Origin: Candidatus Woesearchaeota archaeon B3_Woes
Lineage (GTDB): Archaea; Nanobdellota; Nanobdellia; Woesearchaeales; B3-WOES
DNA length: 40,379 nt
Direction of reading: 5' to 3'
NCBI GenBank assembly: GCA_005222965.1
Contig: NJBG01000001.1
Coordinates: 960,167-1,000,545, forward strand
Numbering within the stretch: the first letter of the stretch is position 1; the number at the start of each line of letters is the position of its first letter. The translations under genes and the position numbers were made by a program. This document shows, in pieces, positions 25,855 to 27,454 of the stretch. The notes under the pieces were generated by a model. It ran no database searches, was not told the origin of the DNA, and saw only the letters and a list, made by a program, of their open reading frames with translations.

Positions 25855-27454
25855 ATACCCGTTGATCCTGCGGGAAGTTGCTGCTATTTGGGTTCGACTA
25901 AGCCATGCAAGCACGGACTTTTTAGAAGTACCGGCATATTGCTCAGTAACACGTCGATAATCTAACCTTAAGTCTAGGATAACCTTGGGAAACTGAGGGT
26001 AAGACTGGATAAAGGAAAGGCACTGGAATGTCCTTTCCTTTAAAAGTAATGCTTAAGGATGAGTCGGCGGCGGATTAGGTAGTTGGTGAGGTAAAGGCTC
26101 ACCAAGCCGAAGATCTGTAGGGGCCTTGAGAGAGGGAGCCCCGAGAAGGGCACTGAGATACTGGCCCTAGCCCTACGGGGTGCAGCAGGCGCGAAACCTT
26201 TACAATGCACGAAAGTGTGATAAGGGAACCCAAAGTGCTTAGTTTAACTAGGCTTTTGCCAAGAGTAAATATCTTGGAGAATAAGTGGTGGGCAAGACTG
26301 GTGCCAGCCGCCGCGGTAATACCAGCGCCACGAGTGGGAACTATAATTATTGGGCCTAAAGCGTCCGTAGCCGGTTTAATAAATTTCTTGTGAAATTGTT
26401 GAGCTTAACTTAACAACGTGCAGGAAAGACTGTTAAACTTGGGATTGGGAGGGGTTAGAAGTATCTTTGGAGTAGCGGTAAAATGTTATAATTCTAAGGA
26501 GACTACCAATGGCGAAGGCATCTAACCAGAACAAGTCCGACGGTGAGGGACGAAAGCTAGGGGAGCAAACCGGATTAGATACAAATGAAGCGTCATTTGA
26601 TAACGCACGCAAGTGCAACATTAGCTACGCTAAGTTGCACGACATATATGTTGTTTGCAAACAAAACTATTAACATATAAATGTGCTAATATATCGTTTC
26701 ATTAATGCTAAAGACCCGAGTAGTCCTAGCCGTAAACGCTGCGAGCAAGATGTTGCATATTCTTCGTGAATATGCAGTATCGAAGAGAAGTCGTTAAGCT
26801 CGCCGCCTGGGAAGTATGGTCGCAAGACTGAAACTTAAAGGAATTGGCGGGGGAGCACTACAAAGGGTGCGGCGTGCGGTTTAATCTAACTCAACGCAGA
26901 GAATCTCACCAGAAGCGACGGTAGAATGAAAGTCAGATTAAAGGTCTTACTTGACGAGCCGAGAGGTAGTGCATGGCCGCCGTCAGCTCGTTCCGTAAGG
27001 TGTCCTGTTAAGTCAGGCAACGAGCGAGACCTGTACCTATAATTGCCAGCAGCAGAATTTCTGGACTGGGCACATTATGGGGACTGCCCTGGAAACAGGG
27101 AGGAAGGTGCAGGCTACGGTAGGTCTGTATGCTCCGAATCTTCTGGGCTACACGCGCGCAACAATGGTAGAGACAATGGGATGCAACTCCGAAAGGAGAA
27201 GCTAATCCTCCAAACTCTATCTCAGTTCAGATTGAGGATTGTAACTCATCCTCATGACGCTGGAATCCCTAGTAATCAGGTCTTATCATGGCCCGGTGAA
27301 TATGTCCCTGCTCCTTGCACACACTGCCCGTCAAATCAACCGAGTTGAGCTTAGATGAGATTTAATTTTTTGATTAAAGCGAATCTGGGCTTAGTGAGGT
27401 GGGTTAAGTCGTCACAAGGTCACCGTAGGGGAACCTGCGGTGGGATCACCTCCT
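25855..27454 (+). rRNA. rrs: 16S rRNA (archaeal, with 133-nt intron)
   Basis: GTTGATCCTG start, GTGCCAGCCGCCGCGGTAA, AAACTTAAAGGAATTGGCGG, GATCACCTCCT end; flanks AGAGTAAAGTTCCA/TGGAACTTTACTCT form the processing stem. Confidence 0.98.
26581..26713 (+). other. 16S rRNA intron after U793 (E. coli numbering), BHB-like
   Basis: Splits GGATTAGAT|ACCCGAGTAGTCC; UUAG/CUAA central helix with AUA and AGA bulges. Confidence 0.9.

Follow-up and report, generated by a model that had tools for sequence, protein, structure and literature searches.

A probable bulge-helix-bulge intron in the 790 loop of the 16S rRNA gene of a Woesearchaeota-type archaeon, at a site occupied in many relatives

Introduction

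How can an archaeon with a tiny genome produce a working small ribosomal subunit when its only 16S rRNA gene is interrupted inside a universally conserved loop? This question is raised by a 40,379-nucleotide stretch of the genome of Candidatus Woesearchaeota archaeon B3_Woes (contig NJBG01000001.1, positions 960,167 to 1,000,545 of the forward strand; hereafter the window), in which 133 nucleotides split the loop of 16S helix 24, the "790 loop". The host of this genome (G000, 1.02 Mb) is a small-genome archaeon of the Woesearchaeota type. A sequence-only reading had interpreted the insert as an intron of the bulge-helix-bulge (BHB) type, positioned after U793. Comparison with relatives strongly supports a predicted intron of this kind, and the insert is very probably an archaeal BHB intron that would be excised by the splicing endonuclease EndA, with the exons being joined by the RNA ligase RtcB.

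Results

An insert in the loop of helix 24

The window contains a complete archaeal rRNA operon, with the 16S rRNA gene at 25855-27454 and the 23S rRNA gene at 27794-30728 (cmscan). The 16S rRNA gene and all features of the insert lie on the plus strand. Positions 25855-27454 align end to end with the archaeal small-subunit (SSU) rRNA model (Rfam RF01959, 1404.7 bits, model positions 1-1478) and exceed the length of the model by about 120 bases. The gene is the sole copy in G000, with one match for its 5' part, and the insert is likewise present once. When cmscan was applied to positions 26440-26900, 134 inserted bases were placed against one model position, between GGAUUAGAUA and CCGAGUAG, which confirmed the insert of 133 nt that the sequence-only reading had located in the 790 loop. 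It occupies 26581-26713, between GGAUUAGAU and ACCC, and could equally be written as 26582-26714 because an A is present at both ends. The site lies between what we take to be U793 and A794 in E. coli numbering, an assignment of our own in which GGATTAGATACCC is taken to start at 785.

The insert also proved to be devoid of a sizeable open reading frame (ORF), as had been claimed: no ORF of more than 31 amino acids lies wholly inside it (the largest frames have 27-31 amino acids), and no LAGLIDADG or other homing-endonuclease ORF was found among them. The Rfam comparison that had been proposed as a check yielded the full-length SSU match and the insert, and no Rfam intron family was detected, either in the window at the gathering score or in 26440-26900 at E <= 1. 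Apart from the SSU match, the local stretch gave a single Rfam hit, an RsaJ match on the opposite strand (14 bits, E = 0.51, gathering score 100), which was taken as chance.

The splicing motif

The exon strand UUAG (26575-26578) pairs with CUAA in the intron (26708-26711), and this 4-bp helix is flanked on opposite strands by two 3-nt bulges, AUA (26579-26581) and AGA (26712-26714), all of which were found where the sequence-only reading had placed them. The central helix is paired in 16 of 16 rows (100%) of an alignment of related introns (A1, described below). The predicted cuts after the second base of each bulge, after U26580 and after G26713, lead to GGAUUAGAU-ACCC, which is the Rfam consensus; the universal GGAUUAGAUACCC is thereby restored to the base, as had been proposed.

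On the intron side, the 5' strand of the inner helix h', or P1, occupies 26582-26592 (CA, then AAUGAAGCG) and its 3' strand 26695-26707 (CGUUUCAUU, then an AA bulge at 26704-26705, then UG). The pairs C26582-G26707 and A26583-U26706 thus adjoin the 5' bulge in the BHB-forced fold and are followed by the AA bulge and by a 9-bp stem formed by AAUGAAGCG (26584-26592) and CGUUUCAUU (26695-26703), which is also part of the minimum-energy fold. RNAalifold detected compensatory changes in P1 (columns 14-21/183-190). Further inside, GUGCAAC (26613-26619) pairs with GUUGCAC (26634-26640) and UUAGC (26621-26625) with GCUAA (26629-26633), together forming hairpin P2 (26613-26640), with 7 bp, a bulged A, 5 bp and a UAC loop; P2 is conserved in the family alignment and was recovered by RNAalifold. 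The inner stem and the nested hairpins of the sequence-only reading are therefore present, but the long stem does not directly adjoin the bulge. A predicted hairpin P3 (26645-26679) belongs to the minimum-energy fold of this sequence only and is unsupported by the family alignment (helices 9-11, 47-77% of cells paired).

On the exon side, the outer helix h is native helix 24 itself, with 26571-26573 pairing with 26716-26718 according to the cmscan alignment and the family alignment; its 5' strand is invariant in 16 of 16 rows. Between h and the 3' bulge, A26574 is unpaired opposite C26715. This A x C mismatch, which the earlier account lacked, separates h from the 3' bulge in every genome, so that the motif has a relaxed form on its 3' side. 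The minimum-energy fold of G000 keeps all four stems and lengthens the UUAG/CUAA helix by U26580-G26707 and A26581-U26706, leaving only A26579 unpaired; the BHB-forced fold has -33.5 kcal/mol compared with -35.6 kcal/mol for the minimum, a cost of 2.1 kcal/mol.

Recurrence in relatives

A first sample comprised G000 and 40 relatives of its order (41 genomes). This 16S stretch was matched in 24 of them: eight contain an insert at the exact site (31-144 nt), 13 are uninterrupted and three are partial. The inserts have lengths of 133 nt (G000), 106 nt (G040), 144 nt (G019), 96 nt (G036), 140 nt (G021), 105 nt (G006), 93 nt (G014) and 31 nt (G001). In a sample of 401 genomes (species representatives) of the order, the 3' junction signature CTAANNACCCNNGTAGTCC was found in 61, compared with one for a reversed-pattern control, and this 16S region in 207; if the unpublished genomes G132, G183 and G315 are omitted, the tallies are 59 and 204 of 398, respectively. 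A stricter 30-mer pattern, applied to one genome per prokaryote species, matched at least 120 contigs, a set that overlaps with the order sample. For 110 of the matches listed, the stored flank includes the 5' junction; L061, L076, L090, L112, L124, L134, L145, L148, L154 and L171, for which it does not, were left out.

The 80 titles shown among the matches listed name Woesearchaeota 32 times, Nanoarchaeota, Nanoarchaeia or Nanobdellati nine times, Aenigmatarchaeota eight times, and Pacearchaeota, Parvarchaeota and Asgard groups (Hermodarchaeum, Borrarchaeum) twice each, while Caldarchaeum, Nitrososphaerota, "Euryarchaeota SM23-78" and "Aminicenantes bacterium" occur once each; 11 read "uncultured Methanosarcinales" and ten plain archaeon. 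The assignment of the host to a DPANN lineage is in agreement with the Woesearchaeota record titles of relatives of the same order. The "uncultured Methanosarcinales" labels of intron-bearing contigs are doubtful. Several contigs, L097, L057 and L117 among them, contain a Woesearchaeota-type 16S rRNA gene with the intron and bear the title "Aminicenantes bacterium" or "uncultured Methanosarcinales archaeon"; labelling or binning errors are probably responsible for the implausible titles.

Mini-introns of 20-32 nt were observed at the same 16S site in L058, L107, L070, L078 and L155; the titles of the first four comprise two Asgard names (Hermodarchaeum, Borrarchaeum), one Nitrososphaerota and one plain archaeon. 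L070, L078 and L155 form clean hairpins of 5-7 bp adjoining CUAA, and the adjoining helix has just 3 bp in L058 and 1 bp in L107. The sole sampled mate of G000 in its family of the Genome Taxonomy Database (GTDB), G001 (L015), contains a 31-nt mini-intron without likeness to the 133-nt intron of G000, so that the occupants of the site change faster than the site does.

Covariation at the splice site and the position of the cuts

The comparison of splice sites covered 190 loci with both junctions (including the matches listed from the species-genome scan), with 19 uninterrupted, and 128 distinct introns of 20-340 nt after identical ones had been collapsed. The first intron pair at the 5' bulge, formed by the base after the bulge and the base before CUAA, is a standard pair in all 128 (C-G 57, U-A 57, G-C 12, A-U 1, U-G 1), and the second is standard in 126. 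A contiguous helix of 3 bp or more adjoins the CUAA/UUAG helix in 124 of the 128 introns, and one of 4 bp or more in 115, compared with 20% and 14% when the partners were permuted, figures that are inflated because families share sequence. This intron-side helix occurs in 47 different 4-bp versions. The intron strand of the central helix itself reads CTAA in 127 introns and TTAA in one.

The position of the cuts can be deduced from the same comparison. The 5' bulge is ATA in 99, ATT in 14 and ATC in three of 116 distinct introns. For all 3' bulge types counted, the universal mature sequence results only if the cut follows the second bulge base; cutting after the first would leave a wrong base in 25 of the 116 introns, G000 included. 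In tRNA BHB motifs the first two anticodon bases lie within the 4-bp helix (PMC4090602), and therefore the canonical cut between positions 37 and 38 also falls after the second bulge base.

Thus, the claim of a BHB intron after U793 was supported by the junction in 61 of 401 order genomes and more than 100 further archaeal contigs, by the covariation of the intron-side helix and by the genes for EndA and RtcB in the host.

Splicing machinery

G000 has one EndA gene (194 amino acids; PF01974, 97.4 bits; PF02778, 60.9 bits) and one RtcB gene (PF01139, 530.4 bits), so that both a splicing endonuclease and an RNA ligase are encoded. Its EndA aligns without gaps with the homotetrameric enzyme of Methanocaldococcus jannaschii (1A79, E = 7.6e-33) and does not have the six residues found after the conserved "GV.P" in the catalytic subunit of Nanoarchaeum equitans (3IEY_A, E = 4.9e-36). 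Plain alpha4 enzymes have been described as strict for the canonical BHB, and broad specificity in DPANN archaea has been tied to added loops (PMC5829648).

Intron families and the fold of the intron body

An all-against-all BLAST comparison revealed two main families, one with 59 introns of 86-126 nt and one with 11 introns of 133-144 nt, including that of G000. Alignment A1 contains 16 sequences, the 11 members of the latter family and five look-alikes that were picked by length and shared motifs. RNAalifold on A1 yielded P1 and one hairpin, with compensatory changes in 10 of 17 pairs. The hairpin at 26613-26640 (helix 8) has 12 pairs with 94.4% of cells paired in the 16 sequences, and nine of the pairs have changed on both sides. 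The G000 fold had a covariation score of 0.184, compared with 0.092 for shuffles (0 of 500 reached the observed value) and 0.047-0.090 for slid controls; it should be noted that the fold counted on A1 is that of a single member and thus has an advantage over the slid controls. In all 16 members, the BHB-containing fold is 0-3.0 kcal/mol above the minimum. Stems of G000 beyond P1 and P2 were unsupported on A1 (helices 4, 5, 7 and 9, 34-52% of cells paired). The elaborate fold of the sequence-only reading, which had been taken as a possible indication of a stable circular RNA, is therefore retained for P1 and one hairpin, which covary, and not for the other predicted stems. Since the G000 intron belongs to the family of 133-144 nt with a conserved hairpin, its fold is under some constraint.

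The first bases of the intron can pair either locally, in a 7-bp hairpin (intron bases 2-19, 26582-26600), or with the 3' end at 26695-26707 to form P1. In G000 the fold with the local hairpin, which takes the strand that P1 needs, has -32.7 kcal/mol and the BHB fold -33.5 kcal/mol, a difference of 0.8 kcal/mol. The local hairpin is a close competitor in G000, L035 and L106 (within 0.8-2.3 kcal/mol). An alternative-fold switch as a rule for the family was rejected, as the local hairpin has a disadvantage of 4.7-25.6 kcal/mol in the remaining 13 of the 16 sequences. Two further candidates were dropped. C/D boxes had been suggested by AUGAUGA-like strings close to the 3' end in the larger family; by eye, these strings turned out to be the complement of the 5' strand of P1. 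A mimic of the 790 loop (AUUAGCUAC in the G000 hairpin compared with AUUAGAUAC in the loop) was taken as a coincidence; ATTAGC is present in just 11 of the 128 introns. A metagenome scan for the G000 hairpin, as a 28-mer with three N, gave 0 matches.

For three pairs of loci, intron identity was compared with that of the flanking exons (260 nt on each side): it was 98% compared with 80% for L150/L176, 82% compared with 69% for L069/L131, and 78% compared with 70% for L013/L069. Introns that are as alike as the exons, or more so, hint at transfer between lineages or at selection on the intron. Different intron families and a mini-intron share the site within single GTDB families.

Sequencing runs

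None of the 24 runs listed contains half of the words of the stretch, the best share being 0.44. The RNA runs X1, X2 and X5 have zero depth on 26588-26707. RNA contigs with a 133-base skip could come from any archaeon, because their sides, of just 22-28 nt, lie in universally conserved sequence. In the DNA-type run X4, a 98-nt contig extends across the 5' junction with three differences from G000, and a near-identical insert therefore exists in an independent data set. X4 is small, its cover ends at 26851, and it looks like an amplicon set of the 515F-926R type; it contains several intron variants at this site, mini-intron forms included, on short contigs from mixed communities.

Other features of the operon

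The 16S rRNA gene is surrounded by a 36-nt inverted repeat (25803-25838 and 27461-27496, 75% complementary), which is the processing stem usual in archaea and a further likely substrate of EndA. The spacer between the 16S and 23S rRNA genes contains a tRNA-Ala(UGC)-like gene (27505-27626) with a G3:U70 pair that was missed by ARAGORN and by the Rfam tRNA model. It appears to have an intron of about 19 nt adjoining the anticodon (about 27541-27559) and one of about 31 nt in the T-loop (within 27582-27613). In 2418 of 15552 trial double deletions a tRNA was called, most frequently Ala(TGC), with 416 calls.

Discussion

We infer cleavage, ligation and the formation of a circle as follows. In the precursor RNA, the exon UUAG would pair with the intron CUAA, placing the bulges AUA and AGA on opposite strands, and the intron would be closed by P1. 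In each bulge, the single-unit EndA would cut behind the second base (26580 and 26713, respectively), and RtcB would join the exons to GGAUUAGAU-ACCC and would probably also circularise the intron. As the exon already contributes most of the 5' bulge and one of the two strands of the central helix, a hairpin with CUAA-NN behind it is all that an insert has to bring. This exon-supplied half of the splicing motif may be the reason why the site is occupied so often, and may explain its repeated occupation across archaeal groups.

Several observations weigh against this interpretation or restrict the evidence for it. As a single sequence, the G000 intron folds no better than shuffles (z = -1.49; 15 of 200 at least as good), so that structure beyond chance is indicated not by this sequence alone but by the recurrence and covariation in relatives. 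The bulge on the 3' side departs from the textbook form, as A26574 faces C26715 and the bulge is thus embedded in a 1x4 internal loop. By the strict hBHBh' definition, helix h' of G000 has just 2 bp before the AA bulge and the 9-bp stem, which places it among the four of 128 introns with fewer than three contiguous pairs. The central and outer helices never vary, and therefore neither contributes covariation evidence. The search pattern itself required CTAA in loci L057-L176; in the BLAST-derived loci, for which no pattern was used, 25 of the 26 distinct introns have CTAA and one has TTAA, which retains a G-U pair. A plain EndA without the six-residue insertion would be expected to be strict, in line with the description of such alpha4 enzymes in PMC5829648, which is at odds with the relaxed 3' side. 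The same exon geometry is present in every lineage found, and so the plain enzyme presumably accepts it. The RNA runs yielded no evidence of splicing; with a share of at most 0.44 of the words of the stretch in any of the 24 runs listed, they have no bearing on splicing in either direction.

Other fates of the insert are far less probable than removal as a BHB intron followed by ligation. The endonuclease or another RNase might remove the insert without religation, and the 16S rRNA would then work as two base-paired fragments. Fragmented rRNAs exist elsewhere in nature, and no joined junction could be attributed to the organism in the 24 runs listed, in which the share of words of the stretch is 0.44 at best. 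Nevertheless, such an outcome is improbable: RtcB is encoded, the break would fall within a universally conserved loop of 9 bases, its two ends being spanned by no helix other than helix 24, and the geometry is that of substrates that are ligated in the archaea studied (PMC7714728). Retention of the 133 bases as an expansion segment of the mature 16S rRNA has nothing specific in its favour and is even less to be expected. The insert splits the conserved loop of helix 24, which has a role at the subunit interface, and 13 of the first 24 matching genomes do without it. Moreover, the lengths range from 20 to 340 nt while the splice motif is fixed, a combination that fits removal and not a function in the ribosome.

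A self-splicing group I or group II intron has a precedent, as group I introns are known in rRNA genes of DPANN archaea (PMC6125680). However, no Rfam intron family was matched, even at E <= 1 on the local stretch. Relatives contain inserts of 20-46 nt at the same site, which is too short for a ribozyme core. In addition, the published archaeal group I sites are 1923, 1931, 2500 and 2593 in the large-subunit (LSU) rRNA and 1498 in the SSU rRNA, and 793/794 is not among them; the probability of a ribozyme is negligible. Equally little credence can be given to an artefact of assembly or binning that joined foreign sequence into the gene. 16S rRNA genes are hard to assemble in metagenomes, and the labels of some records ("Aminicenantes bacterium", "uncultured Methanosarcinales") are implausible, but the same precise junctions occur in 61 order genomes and in 110 contigs among the matches listed (overlapping sets), removal of the insert restores the canonical sequence to the base, and a near-identical junction contig is present in the independent run X4.

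Given a BHB intron, it can be asked whether it is inert. A speculative answer, which we regard as unlikely, would be that ORF-less 793/794 introns of 90-145 nt are old, structurally conserved RNA families that selection maintains, for any one of three reasons. Before it is spliced, the intron may keep the helix-24 loop inactive until late in the assembly of the small subunit, acting as a maturation checkpoint; the excised circle may have a job of its own; or the intron may move without help from a protein, with reverse splicing or gene conversion returning it to the half-BHB that the exon encodes. This is hinted at by the covarying hairpin, the likeness of introns relative to exons, the mixture of families within single GTDB families and the competing 5' hairpin.

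The position of the intron has consequences for amplicon surveys. For primer 806R, the best-matching site (26707-26726) shows four mismatches, including primer positions 19 and 20, both 3'-terminal bases, and 785R/805R has six, whereas 515F and 926R match perfectly. These computed matches fit the earlier claim that the split 806R/785F site would hide the organism from V4 surveys. About three in ten species representatives of the order that show the region (61 with the signature, 207 with the region, of 401) are interrupted inside the 806R/785 site, and because the intron sits inside the primer site, surveys of the 806R type should miss these species systematically. Primer pairs that span the site, for example, 515F/926R, would yield longer products.

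The search of the literature found no report of an archaeal intron at this 16S position, although subscription journals were mostly uncovered and an earlier report may exist. BHB introns are known from 16S rRNA genes of Thermoproteales, Desulfurococcales and Aigarchaeota (Jay & Inskeep 2015, PMC4496867), and the comparison with published loci that had been suggested showed that 793/794 is absent from the 13 loci of that source (374, 548, 722, 781, 803, 901, 908, 919, 978, 1093, 1205, 1213 and 1391). Its primer table links Ab779F to locus 781 and Ab789F and archaea806R to locus 803; none of the loci given there lies between GGATTAGAT and ACCC, though the sequences of all three primers span that site. 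The intron described here resembles those introns in having a BHB that would be spliced by proteins, in lying in a highly conserved stretch and in interrupting "universal" primers, and that source also lists classes that have no endonuclease gene, among them short hairpin-forming introns (<50 nt) and partial or remnant ones. It differs in its host, a Woesearchaeota-type archaeon rather than a thermophilic crenarchaeon, and in belonging to conserved ORF-less families of about 90-145 nt. A source from 2022 (PMC8784108) gives 16S insertions just for Crenarchaeota, Aigarchaeota and Micrarchaeota, and because it names only these three groups, the host lineage lies outside the published list; "intron-containing 16S rRNA genes" of the candidate phyla radiation (CPR) and DPANN are mentioned in general terms in PMC7906910.

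With tRNA introns and the BHBs of rRNA processing stems (PMC4090602, PMC7714728), the element shares the 4-bp helix, the two 3-nt bulges, the composition from an exon strand and an intron strand and the cut after the second bulge base, and as with tRNA introns the ligase is expected to circularise it. Unlike tRNA BHB introns, it has another host gene and site and an A x C mismatch after the 3' bulge, and its 133 nt are just past the range of 11-129 nt given for tRNA introns in PMC4090602. DPANN group I introns (Nawrocki, Jones & Eddy 2018, PMC6125680) likewise reside in rRNA genes, in lineages of Woesearchaeota, Pacearchaeota and Micrarchaeota; the same source reports that some of the archaeal rRNA genes studied contain BHB introns in addition to group I introns, and many hosts in its Table 1 are DPANN archaea. 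In contrast to those group I introns, the present element has no match to a ribozyme model, occupies another site and has no homing-endonuclease gene. It is a well-supported further case of a known type of element, and it extends BHB introns of rRNA genes to a new site, undescribed but evidently common.

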